The notes under the pieces: model-generated | The model's database searches: none | Told to the model about the DNA's origin: nothing | What the model saw: only the letters and a program-made list of their open reading frames with translations | Source: an uncultured virus (IMG/VR IMGVR_UViG_3300044614_000614) | Lineage: Duplodnaviria > Heunggongvirae > Uroviricota > Caudoviricetes | Direction: 5' to 3' (one strand) | Length of the DNA: 20,000 bases | IMG/VR virus record: IMGVR_UViG_3300044614_000614 | Coordinates: 54,457 to 74,456 of that record | Shown here: piece after piece, positions 206 through 19,489 of the stretch | Layout of the letters: every line of letters starts with the position of its first letter | How positions within the stretch are numbered: position 1 is the stretch's first letter | Position numbers and translations under genes: made by a program

Positions 206-209
206 AATG

Positions 210-280
210 CGACCTATGCGAGACTCAAACTCGCTACACCTCTTAGACAGAGAGGAGTGATATCCATTCACTAATAGGCC
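210..280 (-). tRNA. tRNA-Asp(GTC), no encoded CCA
   Basis: Acceptor GGCCTAT/ATAGGTC; anticodon arm CCTCT-CTGTCTA-AGAGG; T arm GCGAG-TTTGAGT-CTCGC; discriminator G followed by CAT. Confidence 0.85.
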
Positions 281-286
281 TTGAAT

Positions 287-361
287 TGGAGAACCAGGTG
301 AGAATTGAACTCACGACACGCGGGTTAAGAGGCCGCTACTCTACCACTGAGTTACTGGTCC
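287..361 (-). tRNA. tRNA-Lys(CTT)
   Basis: Acceptor GGACCAG/CTGGTTC; D arm ACTC-AGTGGTA-GAGT; loop CT-CTT-AA; T loop TTCAATT; 3' CCA. Confidence 0.88.
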
Positions 362-367
362 TTGAAT

Positions 368-443
368 TGGCTGGATAGCTTGGATTCGAACCAAGGTCAT
401 CCTCGTTAACAGCGAGGCGCTCTACCGCTGGAGCTACTATCCA
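368..443 (-). tRNA. tRNA-Asn(GTT)
   Basis: Acceptor TGGATAG/CTATCCA; anticodon arm CCTCG-CTGTTAA-CGAGG; T arm CTTGG-TTCGAAT-CCAAG; G73 then CCA. Confidence 0.93.
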
Positions 444-445
444 AT

Positions 446-585
446 ATTCTACTTTCGTCAGTAGTCACATCATCATATGAGATTCGAACTCATGCCTGCG
501 GATTTCGGCCGCCGTGCTTCCCCTACACCAATGAATGACTTGTCGCTGGTGGCCACCTGCTAGTGACTACTGACGAAAGTAGAAT
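446..585 (-). ncRNA. Candidate ncRNA: degenerate tRNA-like cloverleaf (GAA loop) enclosed by a perfect 23-bp inverted repeat
   Basis: 446-468 is the exact reverse complement of 563-585. Interior 469-539 folds as acceptor-like stem, D arm GTGT-AGGGGAA-GCAC, arm GCGG-CCGAAAT-CCGC and T arm ATGAG-TTCGAAT-CTCAT; no CCA. Confidence 0.6.
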
Positions 586-693
586 GTGAGGCTGTGCTGA
601 GTCACAGACCCTCACTGGATATTTCGCTACTCAGTGCGCCTTTGAGAAGAGCAAAGGTACTCATAGGAACTTAACAATGTCAATCAGCAGTAG

Positions 694-912
694 TTACGTG
701 CAAACATGCACGACAAAAAAACCTTTTACACCTTCGCTCTTCAGCTTGTTTATAAGCTGCTTCTTCGCTTCGGTATACGTGCCACGAATCCAGATTACGT
801 CTTCCATAGACTTTGGATTTCGCGTTTCACTAAAAGCCCAACCGCCTATACCGCGGGGTTTGCGACCGTGAGCCAGTTCGAAGTCAGTCGTATCGAATTC
901 GATCTTCAGCAT
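694..912 (-). CDS. Hypothetical phage protein (72 aa, HGRKPRG.GGWAF motif)
   Basis: ORF with AGGAG RBS and its own sigma70-like promoter; same strand as all neighbouring genes. Confidence 0.75.
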   Translation of the reverse strand: MLKIEFDTTDFELAHGRKPRGIGGWAFSETRNPKSMEDVIWIRGTYTEAKKQLINKLKSEGVKGFFVVHVCT

Positions 913-940: not shown

Positions 941-969
941 AATATATCACACTGATTCGGTCTTTGCAA
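941..969 (-). promoter_or_regulatory. Sigma70-like promoter
   Basis: TTGCAA (964-969), 17-bp spacer, TATATT (941-946), with an A-rich upstream tract. Confidence 0.6.
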
Positions 970-979
970 GCACTTTTTT

Positions 980-1015
980 AAAAGAAAAACCCCGAAACTT
1001 TCGCTTCGGGGTTTT
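980..1015 (-). terminator. Intrinsic terminator (putative attenuator terminator)
   Basis: AAAACCCCGAAGC-GAAA-GTTTCGGGGTTTT followed by TCTTTT: 13-bp stem, GNRA loop and U tract. Confidence 0.85.
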
Positions 1016-1042
1016 AAAAACTAAGTCTTTACGATGACTTAA

Positions 1043-1123
1043 CTACATAGAACCCCTCATCACACCTGCCCATGCTGGCTGGCGTGTCTCTTGATTAATC
1101 GTGAATGGGTAATAATGTTTCAT
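1043..1123 (-). CDS. Putative leader peptide (26 aa) MKHYYPFTINQETRQPAWAGVMRGSM
   Basis: Short ATG-TAG ORF between a dual promoter and a terminator. Its 3' end carries GGGGTT, complementary to the terminator 5' arm. Only a weak purine-rich RBS (AAGAAAG). Confidence 0.6.
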   Translation of the reverse strand: MKHYYPFTINQETRQPAWAGVMRGSM

Positions 1124-1147
1124 TTTCGTCTTTCTTAAACTGTATTC

Positions 1148-1188
1148 TATTTATACAACATCCTAGCAGGATTTTATTAGGTTGTCAA
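1148..1188 (-). promoter_or_regulatory. Tandem sigma70-like promoter and T4-type late promoter
   Basis: TTGACA (1183-1188), 17-bp spacer, TAGGAT (1160-1165) with extended TGn; exact TATAAATA at 1148-1155. Confidence 0.75.
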
Positions 1189-1196
1189 CTTTTTTT

Positions 1197-1273
1197 TGGT
1201 GCGAAAGGTGGGACTCGAACCCACAGAACTCGGTTTTTGAGACCGATACGTATACCTATTCCGTCACTCTCGC
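1197..1273 (-). tRNA. tRNA-Leu(CAA), short variable arm
   Basis: Acceptor GCGAGAG/CTTTCGC; anticodon arm TCGGT-CTCAAAA-ACCGA; T arm GTGGG-TTCGAGT-CCCAC; A73 then CCA. Confidence 0.9.
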
Positions 1274-1449: not shown

Positions 1450-1541
1450 TGGTCGGCGTGCTTGGATTCGAACCAAGTCAAGAACACTCATCTAGTGCTA
1501 AAGGGATTATAAGGCCCTCCCGTGTACCAACACCCACGCCG
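1450..1541 (-). tRNA. Non-canonical tRNA with TAT anticodon (nominally Ile), long variable arm and 4-nt D loop
   Basis: Acceptor CGGCGTG/CACGCCG; D arm GTGT-TGGT-ACAC; loop CT-TAT-AA; variable stem AGCACT/AGTGTT; T arm CTTGG-TTCGAAT-CCAAG; ACCA. Confidence 0.75.
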
Positions 1542-2152: not shown

Positions 2153-2235
2153 TGGCGACCACTGAGGGATTCGAACCCCCATTTTCAGCTCCAGTTACGT
2201 CTAGTCGGGTAGAAGCCGACCTCGGCTAAGTGGCC
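2153..2235 (-). tRNA. Non-canonical tRNA-like RNA with TCT (Arg) loop and no D arm at the normal position
   Basis: Acceptor GGCCACT/AGTGGTC, then G and CCA; T arm GGGGG-TTCGAAT-CCCTC; arm GTCGG-CTTCTAC-CCGAC begins only 8 nt after the acceptor strand. Confidence 0.7.
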
Positions 2236-12335: not shown

Positions 12336-12534
12336 CAGAAATCACTTTCCTTTGCTTCTCGGCTTCTTTGCGATCTTTGGTGCGTTTCCTGGCGACTTTG
12401 GCGATTTCGATTTTTCTTTCTTTGTTGGCGTAGAACCATTCTTCGATTTCTTCAGCCGTCCTGCCGCATCCTCGGCATATTCTTTTAGTGTCTTCATATT
12501 CACACACCTTCGTACAAATAGAATTATTAGACAT
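12322..12534 (-). CDS. DUF1289 family small Cys-rich protein
   Basis: SICTKVC...ICRGCGRTAEEIEEW signature. Confidence 0.8.
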   Translation of the reverse strand: MSNNSICTKVCEYEDTKRICRGCGRTAEEIEEWFYANKERKIEIAKVARKRTKDRKEAEKQRKVISVDLI

Positions 12535-13516
12535 GCACTTTTATCTTTTCTAAACAGCGATCAATACTTTCATCCACTTTAATCTTGGCTTCCCATCCTA
12601 ACATCTGCTTGACCTTTGTGACATCAGGAACACGAACACGCACATCATTCTCATATTCTGCAATGCTGTCAAACACAAGAGCATTATCTTCAATCATACC
12701 CTTTTCAACAGCAATATCACGAATAGTAAGAGCAAGTTCAGACATTGAAATTGGTTCTTTATTTCCTAAATTGAAGATTTCGTTCTTCGTTGTTTCAGAG
12801 AAAGAATGTTGTGCAATTGCTCTTGCAACATCATCAATCCACGTGAAGCAACGAATTTGCTTGCCGTCTCCAATGATAGGTAAAACTTGTTTCTTTTCTA
12901 TTACGATATTTTTGATATAGTCTGCAAAGACATGAGATATGCCTACATCACCTTCAGACTTCTCATAAGGAGTTATGATATTGAACGGACGCCAAATCGT
13001 ATAATCAAGATCATATTGCTTTTTGTATGCACGTGATAGTCTCTCACCTATAAACTTAGACATTCCGTATTCGGTGTGCGGTGCAGGAAAAACATCTACT
13101 TGATCTTCATAAACAGGTCTAAAAACATCTTGAGGACAATTTTCATATACCATGCTTGAAGAGATGTAAACGACTCTCTTCACTTTCCAATTATATGCAG
13201 ACTCTAAAATATTACCATGTAAAGTCACATCATTATAAAGAATGTCTGCACAATACTTGTTGAAGCCACCAACGCCGAATATCCTTGCCGCTGCTTGAAT
13301 GATATAATCTGGTTTGTATTTACCTATTAGAGAGTGAACATCATACGCATTTGTCAAATCTAAATTCTCGAATAGATAACCCTTTGCGATATTCAATCGT
13401 TCATTGTATCTGAATAAATTGTCAACACCAATGACTTCATGTCCTTGATCTAATAGATAAGGAATGACAGCCTGCATCAGACTACCTTCAGATCCTGTTA
13501 CTAAAATCTTGCTCAT
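12527..13516 (-). CDS. NAD-dependent nucleotide-sugar epimerase/dehydratase
   Basis: ILVTG, YISSSMVY, YGMSK (YxxxK), RPFN and GDGKQIRCFT motifs; start at ATGA overlap. Confidence 0.92.
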   Translation of the reverse strand: MSKILVTGSEGSLMQAVIPYLLDQGHEVIGVDNLFRYNERLNIAKGYLFENLDLTNAYDVHSLIGKYKPDYIIQAAARIFGVGGFNKYCADILYNDVTLHGNILESAYNWKVKRVVYISSSMVYENCPQDVFRPVYEDQVDVFPAPHTEYGMSKFIGERLSRAYKKQYDLDYTIWRPFNIITPYEKSEGDVGISHVFADYIKNIVIEKKQVLPIIGDGKQIRCFTWIDDVARAIAQHSFSETTKNEIFNLGNKEPISMSELALTIRDIAVEKGMIEDNALVFDSIAEYENDVRVRVPDVTKVKQMLGWEAKIKVDESIDRCLEKIKVHV

Positions 13517-14736
13517 GTGTAAAATATTCCACTCTTTGTTTTCTTGCTTTCGTCTAAAAATTTCCATGCATCTGCAATGAGAATGTTTGTCTTCTTTGAA
13601 ATGTGTTCATCGTAAAACTTCTTAAACTGGTTGTGAGGAGTCATCACAACGAAGGCATCATAATCATTTATATCATGGGTCGGCCATACATTGTCGGGAT
13701 GTGCGATATATGGATCAAAGAATGCATACGCAATACCATGTCTCTTACAAATCTTCGCAAACTTGAAGCTAAGACTATTACGTGCATCATCACAATCTGC
13801 TTTAAATGTTGCACCAAGTATACCAATTCTCTTCGTTTCAGGTTTTTCTTTCATTATCGCGTTGAACATATATTGAGGCATTCCTTCATTGATGAGGAAT
13901 GATGCTTGAATCAGTTCTGGATAAGGAACATTTTCAAGTAAAAACTTACCGTCTTTAAATAAACACGGACCACCTACATTTGGGCCAGGTTTAGGTAATG
14001 CCATACGAGAATAGTTCTTGTTTACAGAATCAATAACCTTATGAACATCTAATCCTTGTTCTGTGCCAATCATGTAGAATTCGTTTGCGAGAGCAAATGT
14101 CACATAACGATACATATTTGTAATAAGCTTACCAAATTCAGCTTCACGAGGAGTTAGATGAATGCACTCTTCTACGAATGTAAAGATTTCTTTTGCAGCA
14201 TCAAAAGCTTCTTTCGTTCTTGCACCAATCAACTGAGGAAACTTCTTACTTTCAACAATACCTACACCTTGTGCTACACGCTCAGGCGCGAATACAATAT
14301 GAAAAGGAACATCAGTTTCATCAAACAAAATACTTTCTAGAAGATCAGTAGTTCCAGGAGCAACTGTGCTTCTCAGTATTACGACTGCGTTTTCTTTGAG
14401 ATTAGGAGCAAGATCATACTTCACGAAGTCAATGATATCATCAACTCTAGGATTACCTTCACCATCAACAGGAGTACCAATCATGATTGCAACAGCATCA
14501 CATTCTACTAAGAGTTCTGTGTTTGTTGTATAAGTCAAACGATCTGTACTGAGCAAGCTCATTAGCAAGTCTTTTGCTCCCTCTTCTTTATGAGGTACAA
14601 AGCCGCCTAATAGTTGCATACATGCGGCAGGATTTCTATCAATGCCTATGACATTATGTCCAGCATCAGCCAATACAAGGCTGAATGGGAAACCTACGTG
14701 ACCCGCGGCACCAATAACGGCTACTTTTTTAACCAT
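13513..14736 (-). CDS. UDP-glucose/GDP-mannose dehydrogenase family (UDP-ManNAc dehydrogenase-like)
   Basis: VIGAAGHVG, LRSTVAPGTT, APERV, catalytic GGPCLFKD and GATFKADCDDARNS motifs. Confidence 0.92.
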   Translation of the reverse strand: MVKKVAVIGAAGHVGFPFSLVLADAGHNVIGIDRNPAACMQLLGGFVPHKEEGAKDLLMSLLSTDRLTYTTNTELLVECDAVAIMIGTPVDGEGNPRVDDIIDFVKYDLAPNLKENAVVILRSTVAPGTTDLLESILFDETDVPFHIVFAPERVAQGVGIVESKKFPQLIGARTKEAFDAAKEIFTFVEECIHLTPREAEFGKLITNMYRYVTFALANEFYMIGTEQGLDVHKVIDSVNKNYSRMALPKPGPNVGGPCLFKDGKFLLENVPYPELIQASFLINEGMPQYMFNAIMKEKPETKRIGILGATFKADCDDARNSLSFKFAKICKRHGIAYAFFDPYIAHPDNVWPTHDINDYDAFVVMTPHNQFKKFYDEHISKKTNILIADAWKFLDESKKTKSGIFYT

Positions 14737-14737
14737 C

Positions 14738-15568
14738 TCAAGTTTCCTTATTAAACTTAAGCATTGCGATATTCCATTCATCCCACTCTTCACGTTTGAC
14801 GTTAATTGGATGAAGTTCAAAATCATTTGGATTCATCTTGTAGTTCATCAACAATACTGTTTGATCATCATCAATCAAGCCGCAATTAATCATGGACGAT
14901 AAAGATTGCTTGTTATATGATAATTGTCTGAACCACGCCTCTTTACCACCAACTAAATGACATCCCATGATGTATACATCATTATGTCTTATGATATCGA
15001 AGATTGGTCTGCCAAAGTCAATGTCTTTTTTATTGAAGTAGTGCATCTTGTTAGGATCAAAGTCATAATCCCATATGTTAGACTTAGGTAAAGTCTTTTC
15101 ACTTCTAACATATCCAAAGTCTAACCATGCAGCAATATTTGTTTTGATTTGGTCTCTTTCATATGCACCAACAACAAAATCAGTCTTTAGATAGTTTACC
15201 AACACATAATCTGCATTCCAATATTCTGGCATTCTTGGATCATTTACAAACTCAATGTACTCTCTGCGACTCTGAATTCTTTCAATCACAGGCTTAGCAC
15301 TCTTTACTATTTCACTAAAGTCAAGAGGAACAACAACTGTTCTAGAACCTGGAGACTGCTTCTCTCTTATCTTAGAGATGATTTCAGCGTGTTCTTCTGA
15401 ACAGTATATAATCATATCGTTTCTAATCTTGGCTAGATTTTCAAAGTAGCTGAAATAACTTTCAGTTGATCTTGGAATATAATGTGGTGTATCGATACCA
15501 TGTGAAGTTTTATTCCAATTGCTCCTGCCAATATCAAAGAAGGCTGTGACTACAGTAATGTTACTCAT
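14738..15568 (-). CDS. HtrL/YibB-family glycosyltransferase-like protein
   Basis: TVVTAFFDIGR, AWLDFGY and DDDQ motifs. Confidence 0.85.
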   Translation of the reverse strand: MSNITVVTAFFDIGRSNWNKTSHGIDTPHYIPRSTESYFSYFENLAKIRNDMIIYCSEEHAEIISKIREKQSPGSRTVVVPLDFSEIVKSAKPVIERIQSRREYIEFVNDPRMPEYWNADYVLVNYLKTDFVVGAYERDQIKTNIAAWLDFGYVRSEKTLPKSNIWDYDFDPNKMHYFNKKDIDFGRPIFDIIRHNDVYIMGCHLVGGKEAWFRQLSYNKQSLSSMINCGLIDDDQTVLLMNYKMNPNDFELHPINVKREEWDEWNIAMLKFNKET

Positions 15569-16425
15569 AAATTTATCCTCGTCATTATCATGGAATCCCA
15601 CCATGTTAAAAATACTTCCATATCCATAAACTTGTTAGGTTTATTACCTCTAAACAAAGGTTGATTTAGCATATGATAGTATAGATCATCATTGCTGTCA
15701 ACTTCAATCACTCGCTTTAAGAACAAGTGATCGTCTCTGTAATCATGCCAGTTTATCACAGCTTCTGGATTGAAATCCATTTCAAGAGTTGTGCTTCCCC
15801 AATAGATAGGAACAGTTCTAGCATAAGCAGCTTGGATAATCTTTTCTGTGATGTATCCAGGATAACTGCTGTTCTCAAAAGCTAAATGAAACTTTCTTGT
15901 TCTAAGAAAATCTATCTTTGCAGAAGTTGGTCTAGGAATAACATAACCAATGTTATTGAACAAAGGTCCAGCACTGTCAACTTTCTTATAGTTGTTAAGC
16001 AGATTGAACAGTTGGTTTCTCTTTTCACTATTTGGATTACTTACGACAAAAGAAGCAAAGCCTGTCTTTTCTGCTGGTTCAGAAAGATTAAATGGTGTAG
16101 AAAACCCTTGTTCATTTACGAGACTGTTTATCTCATGAACATAAAGAGGTAATCTGAAATGATACGGTTCATCTATGTGGTCGAACGTTATAGCAGCATG
16201 ACACTTATAGTTCCAAAATCTTCTGTTCTCACCAGTAAAGAAGACCTTGAAGACTTTTGCTGAGTCATACGATTCATTTTTGTTACCAAAATTTTCATCA
16301 CCAAAAATCAATATATGAGGATCATTGTCGTCACGAACAACATCATACTTCTGAGATAAAATAGAAATGAACCAATCTGGACTCATTCCAAAATCTGCGA
16401 AACCTACTCTAATTTTCTTTTTCAT
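15565..16425 (-). CDS. Alpha-1,3-fucosyltransferase-like (GT10 family)
   Basis: FTGEN, SFVVSN, FENSSYPGYITEKI and PIYWG motifs. Confidence 0.92.
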   Translation of the reverse strand: MKKKIRVGFADFGMSPDWFISILSQKYDVVRDDNDPHILIFGDENFGNKNESYDSAKVFKVFFTGENRRFWNYKCHAAITFDHIDEPYHFRLPLYVHEINSLVNEQGFSTPFNLSEPAEKTGFASFVVSNPNSEKRNQLFNLLNNYKKVDSAGPLFNNIGYVIPRPTSAKIDFLRTRKFHLAFENSSYPGYITEKIIQAAYARTVPIYWGSTTLEMDFNPEAVINWHDYRDDHLFLKRVIEVDSNDDLYYHMLNQPLFRGNKPNKFMDMEVFLTWWDSMIMTRINL

Positions 16426-16435
16426 AATCTATCCT

Positions 16436-17209
16436 TTAAATGACTATGCAGATATCGTTCTTCTGATATGAAGCATTATACATGATGTTAGAGTCAAAAT
16501 TACCATTGTCAAAAATTTGGCATGGCTGTATAAACTCTGCATCATTAAGCTTTCTTGTAATGGAATAAACATAGATGTTCAGTAGATTATTACCACTATT
16601 TACAAACTGGAGGTGAACACTGATTATTTCATATCCATTTGCTTTTGCCAGTTGCTTGAAGAAGATGGGAGAATAGTTAAAGAACCCGTGATTGATATCA
16701 AAACAAGGAACAGTAGATAACATTACACCACCAACTTTACATAGGTCGTGCATGACATTGAATGCATTTGTCTGGTTTATCAGATGTTCTGTTGTTCCAT
16801 TATTGACAACAAGATCATATTGACCTTTCTTGTCATCAGGACAACGATCTACATTCAAGTCTAGTTTTAACACATAATCAAGATCATTATATGTGTCTAA
16901 GTCAATAGCGAGATAGTCAAACTCTAAATCTTTGTAGAACCTTTGTGCTAACATTCCAGAAGAATAATCATCAAAAGACGCATTCTTACCAAACAGTTCA
17001 AAAACTTCTTTTAGAAAATCTTTACTGTCAGGATATGTTTTCTCATTAGGCACAAATTCATTATTGACTATCTTACCTGATATTCCTGAAACATGATAAT
17101 GAAGTTGTGAAGCTCCTATGTCTGCAACAGAAAGCTTTTTAGAGAAATCTAAGATTCCATTTCTGTGTAGATCCATCATGTTCAATACATCTTCTCTTGT
17201 AGTACCCAT
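16436..17209 (-). CDS. Class I SAM-dependent methyltransferase
   Basis: VADIGA, YLAIDL, YDLVVNNGTTEH, KVGG and HGFFNY motifs. Confidence 0.8.
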   Translation of the reverse strand: MGTTREDVLNMMDLHRNGILDFSKKLSVADIGASQLHYHVSGISGKIVNNEFVPNEKTYPDSKDFLKEVFELFGKNASFDDYSSGMLAQRFYKDLEFDYLAIDLDTYNDLDYVLKLDLNVDRCPDDKKGQYDLVVNNGTTEHLINQTNAFNVMHDLCKVGGVMLSTVPCFDINHGFFNYSPIFFKQLAKANGYEIISVHLQFVNSGNNLLNIYVYSITRKLNDAEFIQPCQIFDNGNFDSNIMYNASYQKNDICIVI

Positions 17210-17218
17210 AAATAAACC

Positions 17219-17782
17219 TCACTTATACCAATACCAAACGTCACACTCTGTCTCTAAGATAGTCTTATTCTTAGAAGAAGCAAACTCTATCACTGCCTCG
17301 TTGATGCACTTGATCACTCTAAAATCATGACCTGAAAATATACCACCATCTTTAAGCTTAGGATAGTAATTCGTCATGTCTTTAGTAACTTGCTCAAACG
17401 TATGTAGACCGTCAATAAATACAAAGTCTAGAGAGTTATCTTCGATATTAGAGACAGCATCATCTGAATACTTTCTGAGAAACTTAATTCTATCACCAAA
17501 CACCTTTGTGTTATCTAGAAACTGCTGATATATGTTTTCTCTTTCGTTTAGATTTGTACCATTCCAATCAATGTAGTTAACATAAGGATCAATGCAATAT
17601 AGAGTAAGATTTTTATTTGATTCCATCAAAAATCTTGTAGTGAATCCTTCAGCCAGACCAATTTCAACACCTACAGGATTTTCTAATCCTTCAATCATCT
17701 TACCAAGTCCGTAACCAGAACACTTAAACTTTGGTGTTATTCCAAAATTACCAGTAGAGTTATAATAAAAAGAATCACTCAT
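17219..17782 (-). CDS. SAM-dependent methyltransferase (Methyltransf_24-like)
   Basis: GVEIG, CIDPY, DFVFIDGLH and GGIFSGHD motifs. Confidence 0.88.
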   Translation of the reverse strand: MSDSFYYNSTGNFGITPKFKCSGYGLGKMIEGLENPVGVEIGLAEGFTTRFLMESNKNLTLYCIDPYVNYIDWNGTNLNERENIYQQFLDNTKVFGDRIKFLRKYSDDAVSNIEDNSLDFVFIDGLHTFEQVTKDMTNYYPKLKDGGIFSGHDFRVIKCINEAVIEFASSKNKTILETECDVWYWYK

Positions 17783-18461
17783 CTATACGTTCTCCATTTG
17801 GTGCTAAGTTGCCGCATAGTCCTATTTTTTCCATTTCAATAGGAGCAAAGGCATTAAAATATTTGTAATAAGCATGTTCTATGTCCATCGGCAATGTAAG
17901 ACAATCGCGGATAACATATTTCAGCTTTTCTATCGTCTGATCTAATAGATCATAATCAAAATGAAAAAGTCTTGATTGATATACATGATCTACGCCAATA
18001 TAATCTGATTGTTCTTTTGGCATCCAAGTTTTAGTAGGAACAGTAAACACATACTTACCTACATGTTCTAGACCAGGAACAAAGTTATCAGTTAGTTGAT
18101 ATCTACCTGATATCTTATATATTCTCTTTGTTTTTATTTCATTCTCACGAATCCAATTCAACGACATCATAAAAGAAATGGATTCAGCAGCACTTTTTAC
18201 GCCCGCTTCTGAAAATTTTTTGACGTTTTCATCTCTGCCTGTAAAAAGAACAACCGTGTTTCTCTTTACTAGTTCATCAAAATATTTACTTTCTGGTTCA
18301 ACAGAAGACGCATCAAACAAAATCTTTTGATTGTTAGGCATATACTTGTCAATTGAATTCAAAGTCTCAATCGTTTGATTAAAACGGTCTTCTGTTGAGT
18401 AAATTGAAAGATGATTTGGACAAACAAGCGCACTGCTTATCACAAAGATGGCATCGTTCAT
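17775..18461 (-). CDS. Hypothetical protein, probable glycosyltransferase-associated
   Basis: RFNQTIETLNSI, KISGRY and DIEH motifs; embedded in the sugar island with ATGA coupling. Confidence 0.65.
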   Translation of the reverse strand: MNDAIFVISSALVCPNHLSIYSTEDRFNQTIETLNSIDKYMPNNQKILFDASSVEPESKYFDELVKRNTVVLFTGRDENVKKFSEAGVKSAAESISFMMSLNWIRENEIKTKRIYKISGRYQLTDNFVPGLEHVGKYVFTVPTKTWMPKEQSDYIGVDHVYQSRLFHFDYDLLDQTIEKLKYVIRDCLTLPMDIEHAYYKYFNAFAPIEMEKIGLCGNLAPNGERIDE

Positions 18462-19489
18462 ATCTTCAGCCACTTCTCATTAGCGAGTGTCCAGTTAACG
18501 ACTTCACTGATTCGATCAGACAAAGCAATCTTTGGATACCAACCAAGATTTCTCATATACTCACCAGATAAAGCATAACGAAGATCGTGTCCAGGTCTAG
18601 ATGAATGGAAATCTATCAATTCATAATTCAATTCTTTACCTTGAGACTTTGCAATCATTAGAGCCAAATCTAGGTTATTGATTTCTTCAGCACCAACAAT
18701 ATTGAACTTAGGGCACTTAGCACCACCATAGTCATCAATGTGAATAGAGTTTCTATCAAGGTTTAGAATAAACATGAGAGCAGACGCAACATCCTTGGCA
18801 TGAATGTAATGTCTTGAACCTGGAATTGTTTTAGTCTTGTCTGAGTGAATGTAAACCTTCTCACCAGTATTGGCTCTTCTAATGACCATAGGAATAAACT
18901 TTTCAGGATGCTGACGCTCTCCAAAAACATTCATAGTATGTGTGATGTAGATAGGAAGCTTGTATGTATTTTCATATGCAACACAAAACTCTTCAGCGGC
19001 AGCCTTTGATGCTGAATAAGGATTAGTTGAATTGTACCTATCAAATTCTTTATAGTTAACACCGAAAGGTGCAGGACCAAATACTTCATCGGTAGAGAAG
19101 TATACAAAACTTTCAAGATTCTTAAGAGTTCTGGCATACTGCAATAGGTTCACAGTGCCAAGTGTATTGTCCATCAAAAACTCAACAGGATATTCAATCG
19201 AACGATCAACATGTGATCCTGCTGCCATGTGTAGCACAATGTTAACATCACCAAGCAGAGAATTGATAAGCGGATTGATTTCGGCTCTCAAGTCGTGATA
19301 CACAATCTTCACTCTTGACTTGACAGACTGGTCATATGACTGAAGTATATCGTAAAGCCTATTCAGATTTCCAGAGAAGTCTAATCTATCAAGACTGACA
19401 ATCTTCCAATCTGTTTCTCTTAGAATTGTATCGATAACATGATGTGCAATGAAACCTGCACCGCCTGTAATAAGAACTGTCTTTGTCAT
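18458..19489 (-). CDS. rmlB: dTDP-glucose 4,6-dehydratase-like NDP-sugar dehydratase
   Basis: TGGAGFI, AAGSHVDRSI, STDEVFG, PYSASKA, QHPEKFIP and RPGHDLRY motifs. Confidence 0.9.
   Translation of the reverse strand: MTKTVLITGGAGFIAHHVIDTILRETDWKIVSLDRLDFSGNLNRLYDILQSYDQSVKSRVKIVYHDLRAEINPLINSLLGDVNIVLHMAAGSHVDRSIEYPVEFLMDNTLGTVNLLQYARTLKNLESFVYFSTDEVFGPAPFGVNYKEFDRYNSTNPYSASKAAAEEFCVAYENTYKLPIYITHTMNVFGERQHPEKFIPMVIRRANTGEKVYIHSDKTKTIPGSRHYIHAKDVASALMFILNLDRNSIHIDDYGGAKCPKFNIVGAEEINNLDLALMIAKSQGKELNYELIDFHSSRPGHDLRYALSGEYMRNLGWYPKIALSDRISEVVNWTLANEKWLKI

Follow-up and report, generated by a model that had tools for sequence, protein, structure and literature searches.

A candidate ribosome-operated transcription attenuator within the tRNA cluster of uncultured T4-like phages

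The IMG/VR record IMGVR_UViG_3300044614_000614 is a 74,456-nt contig of an uncultured virus, estimated to be 45% complete and with a G+C content of 40%. We analysed its terminal 20 kb (20,000 nt, the window in what follows) and found on the minus strand, inside a cluster of tRNA genes, a compact unit in which a promoter is followed by a short open reading frame (ORF), several hairpins and an intrinsic terminator. Comparison of related copies gives good support to the view that this unit is a terminator/antiterminator switch overlapped by the short ORF in the geometry of an attenuator. The anatomy of the unit, its conservation, the covariation of both competing helices, their bistability and the preservation of the ORF can all be read from the aligned sequences. 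The favoured reading is that the unit works as a ribosome-operated transcription attenuator within the phage tRNA cluster; this is tentative, and we give it a rough probability of 0.45. Regardless of the ribosome model, comparative sequence evidence shows the unit to be a conserved structured RNA of a new family, carried by uncultured T4-like phages. All the features listed in the original prediction, which had been made from the window sequence (promoters, ORF, hairpins, terminator and paired arms), were present on the minus strand where it had placed them (Table 1).

Phage tRNA clusters are common, the control of their expression is largely unknown, and their purpose (codon supply or escape from tRNA-cutting defences) is debated. 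A switch placed where the main tRNA block begins, and sharing sequence with a preserved mini-ORF, would be a concrete and testable handle on the control of such clusters.

The two competing helices

Four segments of the RNA are numbered here in the order of transcription. Region 1 lies within the ORF, region 2 consists of its last sense codons, region 3 belongs to the 5' arm of the terminator and region 4 is the 3' arm of the terminator. Region 3 can pair either with region 2, giving the antiterminator helix (2:3), or with region 4, giving the terminator helix (3:4). The comparison is based on alignment A5, which holds 20 distinct versions of the unit that are related to each other. Across these 20 variants the 2:3 helix was paired in 97.8% of 180 cells, with two pairs changed on both sides, and the 3:4 helix was paired in 97.3% of cells, with three compensatory pairs. 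The 2:3 helix is a perfect 9 bp in 16/20 variants. A C.A mismatch is seen in the window alone; m138, m142 and m146 have a G.A mismatch, yet their outermost 2:3 pair is compensated from A-U to G-C, at a region 3 position which is unpaired in the terminator. In m135 the changes G to A (region 2), C to U (region 3) and G to A (region 4) fall at the same position, and both 2:3 and 3:4 are preserved; in region 2 the codon goes from GGG to GGA without altering the amino acid, and this change breaks the alternative pairing of regions 1 and 2.

Forced folding of the 20 variants gave energies of -20.1 to -30.7 kcal/mol for the antiterminator and -23.7 to -30.8 kcal/mol for the terminator, the two being nearly isoenergetic in every variant. 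In nascent RNA that ends at the terminator loop and still lacks region 4, 8-9 of the nine 2:3 pairs were formed in the minimum free energy (MFE) fold of 20/20 variants. Considering the conservation of both helices, the compensatory changes and the near-equal energies, we conclude that both helices are probably under selection and that the unit is a switch; the mutual exclusion of antiterminator and terminator, which had been proposed from the window sequence, was borne out by this comparison.

The inner hairpin that joins regions 2 and 3 was paired in 95% of cells, with a loop varying in length and sequence. The hairpin in the middle of the ORF was paired in 88.2% of cells and showed two compensatory pairs and a conserved loop; in one of these pairs the series C-G, U-G, U-A arises via amino-acid-changing substitutions. 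RNAalifold returned the terminator form with a 3-bp CCC:GGG contact between regions 1 and 2. A pairing of regions 1 and 4, taken from the MFE fold of L006, was paired in 65% across the variants and was rejected.

The motif GGGGTTYTA occurs twice in the window when both strands are counted (0.10 expected), and the two occurrences are region 2 and the complement of region 3; none of 200 shuffles contained two or more. The 171-nt RNA folds at -50.3 kcal/mol, compared with -31.0 +/- 3.8 kcal/mol for shuffled sequences (z score -5.1). Its terminator is by far the strongest minus-strand terminator-like site within the 16-kb tRNA region and the only strong internal terminator of the cluster; just one other minus-strand site with at least 7 pairs was detected, close to the far end of the 16-kb region examined.

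A TTGACA-17 promoter (P1) lies upstream in all aligned variants, with a -10 element of TAGGAT, TAGAAT, TAAAAT or TGnTATAAAT, and the promoter scan called P1 in L113, L116 and the window. TATAAATA, which matches the T4 late-promoter consensus, stands at the -10 element or directly past it; it is kept in most variants and replaced by TACTAAATA in v2-v4, m147 and m148.

The short open reading frame

The ORF starts with ATG AAA, has 26-28 codons and was intact in 22/22 full-length viral copies and 20/20 true metagenome matches. Its position, ending just past the antiterminator arm as the original prediction had described, was kept in every full-length copy. The stop begins 2 or 5 nt past the last paired base of region 2, and lies inside the 5' arm of the inner hairpin in all variants except the window. 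Most variants use TAA and group B uses TGA; TAG is found in the window lineage alone, where a single 1-nt insertion itself creates the TAG.

No run of regulatory codons for one amino acid was found in the 20 variants, in agreement with what had been noticed in the window; AAT AAT, present in 11/20, comes closest. The AAT codon is invariant (20/20) and CAA is nearly so (19/20), the block reading AAT AAT CAA in 11 variants and having a single AAT in the other nine, including the window. The sense codons outside the helices that hardly vary are those for Lys (AAA), His (CAY), Tyr (TAT), Asn (AAT) and Gln (CAA). The AAT CAA block is located near the 5' side of the mid-ORF hairpin and upstream of tRNA-Asn; it could represent a more specific Asn/Gln signal, or else have a non-coding function as seed or binding site. 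Unusual codon diversity, also claimed for the leader, was confirmed only in part: 21 distinct codons are ordinary, since 24% of 26-codon windows drawn at random from long ORFs of this phage have at least as many, whereas 17 distinct amino acids fall in the upper 2.5% of such windows, and the variants span 14 to 19.

For codon analysis the stored sequences of 11 variants were aligned with MAFFT. The ratio of non-synonymous to synonymous polymorphism (pN/pS) was 0.6-1.26 between groups; between close pairs it was 0.09-0.5 for some, up to 0.77 for others and undefined for two. An excess of synonymous over non-synonymous change, the mark of a protein gene under purifying selection, was not found among these variants, and the peptide is barely constrained. 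A weakly constrained peptide is expected if the act of translation matters and not the product. Kept frame combined with free peptide would fit the pattern of a regulatory leader ORF, and it would also be compatible with a non-coding RNA staying open by chance. We consider the chance that the leader ORF is translated to be somewhat better than even.

A tRNA gene with anticodon CTA (amber suppressor, labelled Pyl by ARAGORN) was detected at contig position 46778-46851, outside the window, and TAG is the rarest stop on the contig (7 of 60 ORFs of at least 150 aa). Recoding of TAG, prompted by this tRNA, was rejected, as the long ORFs were barely altered when TAG was read as sense. If the TAG of the window leader were suppressed, the frame would be open across the terminator, giving about 32 codons. 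A signal at the stop resembling a selenocysteine insertion sequence (SECIS) or a read-through signal was rejected as well, since most variants stop at TAA.

Search and distribution of the family

Using ORF72, a gene lying after the terminator, as the starting query, we obtained five related contigs, three of them identical over the unit and two with a diverged version. A more distant copy (L048), adjoining a helicase of 66% identity, was found by nhmmer and was the sole match among 80 helicase-neighbour loci. Any tRNA was present in just 7 of the 81 scanned helicase-neighbour loci, so these loci cannot show the spread of the unit. Three pattern scans were also made. The ORF-based pattern gave 17 true matches out of 20; the second pattern, composed of region 2, inner hairpin and region 3 only, gave 23/23; and the third, run on metagenomes with regions 2-4 and the ORF ends left free, gave 20/22. 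The second and third patterns exclude the start codon, the stop codon and the 5' half of the ORF.

The unit was found in 24 other viral contigs and 20 metagenome records, part of them the same contigs. A search for a short ORF with a paired terminator upstream of tRNA arrays had been suggested together with the original prediction; the pattern scans returned such copies, and the pairing covaries among the 20 aligned versions. In 11 of the 13 loci of relatives the unit is flanked by tRNA-Leu(caa) and tRNA-Asn(gtt), and in the remaining two the upstream side is lost at the contig end. In all 13 loci tRNA-Asn is the nearest downstream tRNA with the bulk of the tRNA cluster beyond, and the predicted location upstream of tRNA genes holds throughout.

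Among cultured phages, blastn of the window unit and two diverged variants against 50,697 phage records gave tRNA-Leu matches or nothing; at the sensitivity of blastn there is therefore no cultured carrier. A pattern scan of 185,579 prokaryotic genomes returned two matches, both unrelated coding sequence in cyanobacterial metagenome-assembled genomes. In Rfam 15, which covers riboswitches, T-box elements, leaders and small RNAs, nothing matched the unit above gathering score; the best matches, both over the terminator hairpin, were Yfr10 (27.3 bits, gathering score 43, E 0.34) and the rnk leader (22.9 bits, gathering score 55, E 0.76).

Proposed mechanism

Transcripts starting at P1, or coming from the four upstream tRNA genes, would bear the leader ORF of 26-28 codons. 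The last sense codons (region 2) and region 3 would form a two-storey hairpin, by which the 5' arm of the terminator is sequestered. We infer that the ribosome decides between the two folds. A ribosome that is promptly at the stop would mask region 2 together with the 5' arm of the inner hairpin; regions 3 and 4 would then pair and the polymerase would terminate. If the ribosome is missing, lags behind, or stalls while its A site is no further than about codon 18, the 2:3 helix would form once region 3 is made, and the polymerase would read through into the downstream genes, up to 24 tRNA genes. The covarying mid-ORF hairpin may be a pause site that synchronises polymerase and ribosome.

By geometry, region 2 stays free when the ribosome stalls anywhere up to about codon 18. 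Folding with and without a ribosome mask, a check attached to the original prediction, gave a divided result: the expected dependence was seen in L006, whereas in the window the terminator was the equilibrium MFE fold under every mask. A ribosome effect in the window would therefore have to be kinetic.

The attenuator may further act as a feedback valve, in which stalling caused by Lys, His, Tyr, Asn or Gln tRNAs that are scarce or nuclease-cut would open transcription into more than 20 phage tRNA genes. We regard this extension as unlikely. If true, it would be the first attenuator of the leader-peptide type to be described from a phage, as well as the first to control tRNA genes themselves, and it would sense translation capacity instead of one amino acid. 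In the literature library searched, we found no description of a leader-peptide attenuator in phage or upstream of tRNA genes. If the unit is ribosome-operated, these phages would measure the translation state of the host and adjust their own tRNA output.

Evidence weighing against the attenuator and alternative explanations

Several results weigh against a ribosome-operated attenuator. A promoter-like site (P2) is located after the terminator in three of the five scanned lineages, with 9/12 matches in the window and 10/12 each in L116 and L112, counted as consensus matches only. The downstream tRNAs in these three lineages need not depend on read-through. No promoter was found after the terminator in the other two, L113 and L142. 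The original prediction had named downstream tRNAs driven wholly by this promoter as the result that would speak against it, and the distribution of P2 over the five lineages neither bears out that objection nor removes it. Read-through could supplement P2 in the lineages that have it and be the chief input in those that lack it.

The trp-like geometry that had been proposed was found in the arrangement of ORF, terminator and antiterminator, and it broke down at the anti-antiterminator: of the 1:2 helix just the CCC:GGG core is kept, with 79.5% of cells paired (alignment A4), without covariation and broken in m135. Since no 1:2 helix is conserved, an untranslated RNA may tend to read-through by default, and this tendency would place the logic nearer to drug-responsive stalling attenuators than to amino-acid attenuators. 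The covariation rests on few events, one sequence for one pair and three related sequences for the other. Furthermore, regions 2 and 3 were fixed in the second search pattern and the inner hairpin in the third, by which the apparent invariance is inflated.

The evidence for translation is likewise limited. Both indel sites in the ORF are 3 nt, while 6 of the 7 in the 3' non-coding part (68 columns) are not multiples of three; this contrast (p about 0.08, our own count) is modest support for selection on frame. When the observed changes were redistributed in simulations, no stop arose in any of the 20 variants in 836 of 5000 runs that kept the variable columns and in 168 of 5000 that moved them (p 0.03-0.17), which is again modest. 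In the 11 variants of the codon analysis the minimum number of changes was 18/18/18 at the three codon positions, showing no wobble excess and equally fitting a non-coding RNA. As ribosome-binding site (RBS), AGGA or GAGGA was present in 4/20 variants, a bare GGA 2 nt before the AUG in 10/20, and nothing in 6/20, including the window, so that the site is weak or missing in 16/20. Even the wobble bases of the conserved blocks do not vary, a pattern that indicates constraint at the RNA level.

The main rival is an autonomous small gene, in which P1 and the terminator would make a stable structured RNA of about 150-175 nt (a small RNA (sRNA), a micropeptide mRNA, or both), and the choice between 2:3 and 3:4 would serve the biogenesis, stability or function of that RNA. 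This is possible, though fairly unlikely in our judgement. Such a gene would be bounded in all variants by a strong promoter and a terminator that belong to it, between flanks that vary (ORF72, ORF64 or nothing downstream; a protein gene upstream in group B), and P2 would restart transcription behind it in three of the five lineages. The wobble-invariant blocks with no wobble excess, the weak RBS and the strongly structured RNA (z -5.1) point in the same direction, and the unpaired, nearly invariant AATCAA is a possible seed. However, a simple sRNA needs no helix that competes with its own terminator and is compensated and isoenergetic in 20/20 variants; the kept frame, the start codon and the stop position beside region 2 are left unexplained, and no Rfam family matched. 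By analogy with attenuator-derived sRNAs, this rival and the attenuator need not be mutually exclusive. Another explanation, in which the switch is set by an effector other than the ribosome (a tRNA, a phage or host protein, or a small molecule) and the ORF is incidental to a conserved RNA, appears improbable to us. A bistable covarying switch with weak or missing RBS and unpaired blocks conserved at the nucleotide level is what such a switch would look like, and the covarying mid-ORF hairpin with its conserved loop could be a binding site. But no known riboswitch, T-box or protein-binding leader family matched, no junction resembling a ligand pocket is evident in a fold that is a chain of simple hairpins, and the preserved ORF with its in-frame indels would have to be coincidence.

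The original prediction had gone further and proposed a general sensor of the tRNA pool, in which stalling on almost any depleted or cleaved host tRNA would open the gate and counter anticodon-nuclease defence. All the evidence for the attenuator applies here too, with the geometry that leaves region 2 free for stalls up to about codon 18. The nearly invariant codons outside the helices are those for Lys, His, Tyr, Asn and Gln, and the first downstream tRNAs are Asn, Lys and Asp. Several of these tRNAs are targets of known anticodon nucleases. Against this, the number of distinct codons is ordinary, amino-acid diversity varies from 14 to 19 across the variants and would also be high in unconstrained sequence, the tandem AAT AAT upstream of tRNA-Asn in 11/20 hints at a narrower signal, and neither a host nor a linked defence system was identified. 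That phage tRNAs counter tRNA-targeting defences is a published proposal (PMC10264068), in which attenuat, promoter, terminator and leader peptide do not occur as terms. That the unit senses almost any tRNA, and that it is linked to anticodon nucleases, is pure inference, and we hold this version to be rather improbable. A processing or insulation element, in which the terminator separates two tRNA transcription units and the 2:3 hairpin is an RNase III-type site on read-through precursors, seems highly improbable. It would agree with the sole strong internal terminator of the cluster being followed by P2 in three of five lineages, with a two-stem hairpin that has an internal loop and is compatible with RNase III sites, and with a 23-bp stem 300 nt downstream that suggests heavy precursor processing; it leaves the dedicated strong P1, the conserved ORF, the competition with the terminator and the covariation unexplained.

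Comparison with known systems

Leader-peptide attenuators control amino-acid operons and pheST, for example trpL, hisL, pheL, pheM, thrL and leuL. The phage unit resembles these trp-type attenuators in having a short ORF before an intrinsic terminator, an antiterminator strand common with the terminator, an antiterminator 5' arm that would be under a ribosome at the stop codon, and a leader hairpin that could pause the polymerase. It differs in that it has no codon run for one amino acid, no conserved 1:2 helix and only a weak RBS, is located in a phage before tRNA genes instead of biosynthetic or synthetase genes, and has a promoter past the terminator in several lineages. Ribosome-stalling attenuators are also located before antibiotic-resistance genes (ermK, bmrB-bmrCD, vmlR, lmo0919 and the mef/msr leaders). 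These share with the phage unit a leader ORF without amino-acid run, where any stall frees the antiterminator and general trouble in translation would be sensed; however, they respond to ribosome-targeting drugs and control bacterial resistance genes, whereas the phage unit would control phage tRNAs.

T-box riboswitches are alike in tying the choice between terminator and antiterminator to the state of the tRNA pool. They bind uncharged tRNA directly, need no ORF and control synthetase or amino-acid genes, and no Rfam T-box match was found on the phage unit. The T4 tRNA region encodes stable non-tRNA RNAs (rnaC and rnaD), which are processed from the tRNA precursor, and the phage unit is likewise a small structured RNA inside a T4-type tRNA cluster; we know of no promoter, ORF or competing terminator belonging to rnaC or rnaD. 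In Sinorhizobium, the terminated attenuator product rnTrpL is described as an sRNA and its leader peptide peTrpL as functional (PMC7968998), which would show that attenuator and sRNA/micropeptide gene can coexist. There is no sequence relation to the phage unit, and rnTrpL has Trp codons and controls trp genes.

Genomic setting and coordinates

The contig is assigned to a T4-like phage because of its family-B DNA polymerase gene, whose product has about 52% identity with Synechococcus myovirus homologues, and its genes for a DnaB-like helicase and a UvsX-like recombinase. A total of 29 tRNA genes were found on the contig, 28 of them on the minus strand in a single 12-kb cluster that contains the switch unit. 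Four tRNA genes (Leu-taa, Met, Ile-tat and Leu-caa) are located upstream of the unit and 24 downstream, the order of the latter beginning with Asn-gtt, Lys-ctt and Asp-gtc.

Table 1. Features of the switch unit and its neighbours in the window (positions of the 20,000-nt window)
Feature	Position	Strand	Basis
P1, sigma70-like promoter TTGACA-17-TAGGAT	1160..1188	-	10/12 consensus matches
TATAAATA, at or just after -10	1148..1155	-	read from sequence
Short ORF, ATG 1123-1121, 26 sense codons, TAG 1045-1043	1043..1123	-	read from sequence
Region 1 (ACCCATTCA), candidate partner for region 2	1102..1110	-	paired in window MFE fold
AAT CAA (Asn, Gln codons), unpaired in folds, nearly invariant including wobble bases	1091..1096	-	alignment A5
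Mid-ORF hairpin CACGCC/GGTGTG, possible RNA polymerase pause hairpin	1061..1086	-	MFE fold
Region 2 (GGGGTTCTA), antiterminator 5' arm, last sense codons	1048..1056	-	read from sequence; pairs with region 3
Inner hairpin joining regions 2 and 3	1021..1042	-	MFE fold
Region 3 (TAAAACCCC), common to antiterminator and terminator	1008..1016	-	read from sequence
Intrinsic terminator, 13-bp stem 1015-986, GAAA loop, U-tract; 3' arm is region 4	976..1015	-	terminator scan
P2, second sigma70-like promoter TTGCAA-17-TATATT, after terminator	941..969	-	9/12 matches, with TG
ORF72, variable cargo gene with strong Shine-Dalgarno	694..912	-	no PHROG family
tRNA-Leu(caa), upstream neighbour of unit	1197..1273	-	ARAGORN
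tRNA-Asn(gtt), tRNA-Lys(ctt), tRNA-Asp(gtc), first three downstream tRNAs	209..443	-	ARAGORN

Two features of the upstream tRNA region were also noted. The tRNA-Ile(tat) gene at 1450-1541 (minus strand) is unusually long (92 nt) in the window and its relatives, and its nearest Rfam match was tRNA-Sec at 27.9 bits, below threshold. At 2156-2235 (minus strand) there is an Rfam tRNA match of 33.3 bits (gathering score 29) without an ARAGORN call.

Region downstream of the terminator

The slot between terminator and tRNA-Asn differs among the relatives, the equivalents in L113 and L111 being included in the comparison: it holds ORF72, an unrelated 64-aa ORF (ORF64) in group B, or no ORF in v4-v6. 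Group B also has a protein gene upstream of the unit. Beyond the cargo slot, and before tRNA-Asn, come a non-coding block that is conserved and then a long stem. A MotA-type middle promoter at P2 was rejected, since by our own reading the spacing does not match the consensus.

Between the terminator and P2, 20-60 nt past the terminator, most relatives (L116, L113, L112 and others) have a second small conserved hairpin with an A-rich stretch; this hairpin is missing in the window lineage and in m135 among the 20 aligned variants. Four public RNA runs, which share 5-6% of sampled words, yielded contigs that cover only tRNA genes of the relatives and nothing at 400-1113, and are uninformative on expression and 3' ends.

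In the window the conserved non-coding block and the long stem occupy 444-693 (minus strand); the stem, a perfect one of 23 bp, lies about 300 nt downstream of the unit and encloses about 95 nt with a T-arm-like hairpin. Positions 470-537 (minus strand) gave an Rfam tRNA score of 33.3 bits without an ARAGORN call. The relatives likewise keep a long stem at this position, although its sequence differs. The stem could serve RNase III-type processing around a tRNA-like RNA.

In another part of the window, at 12527-19489 (minus strand), nucleotide-sugar epimerase, UDP-glucose dehydrogenase-like and methyltransferase-like genes lie in a run adjoining replication genes, and this run may have a role in DNA or surface sugar modification.

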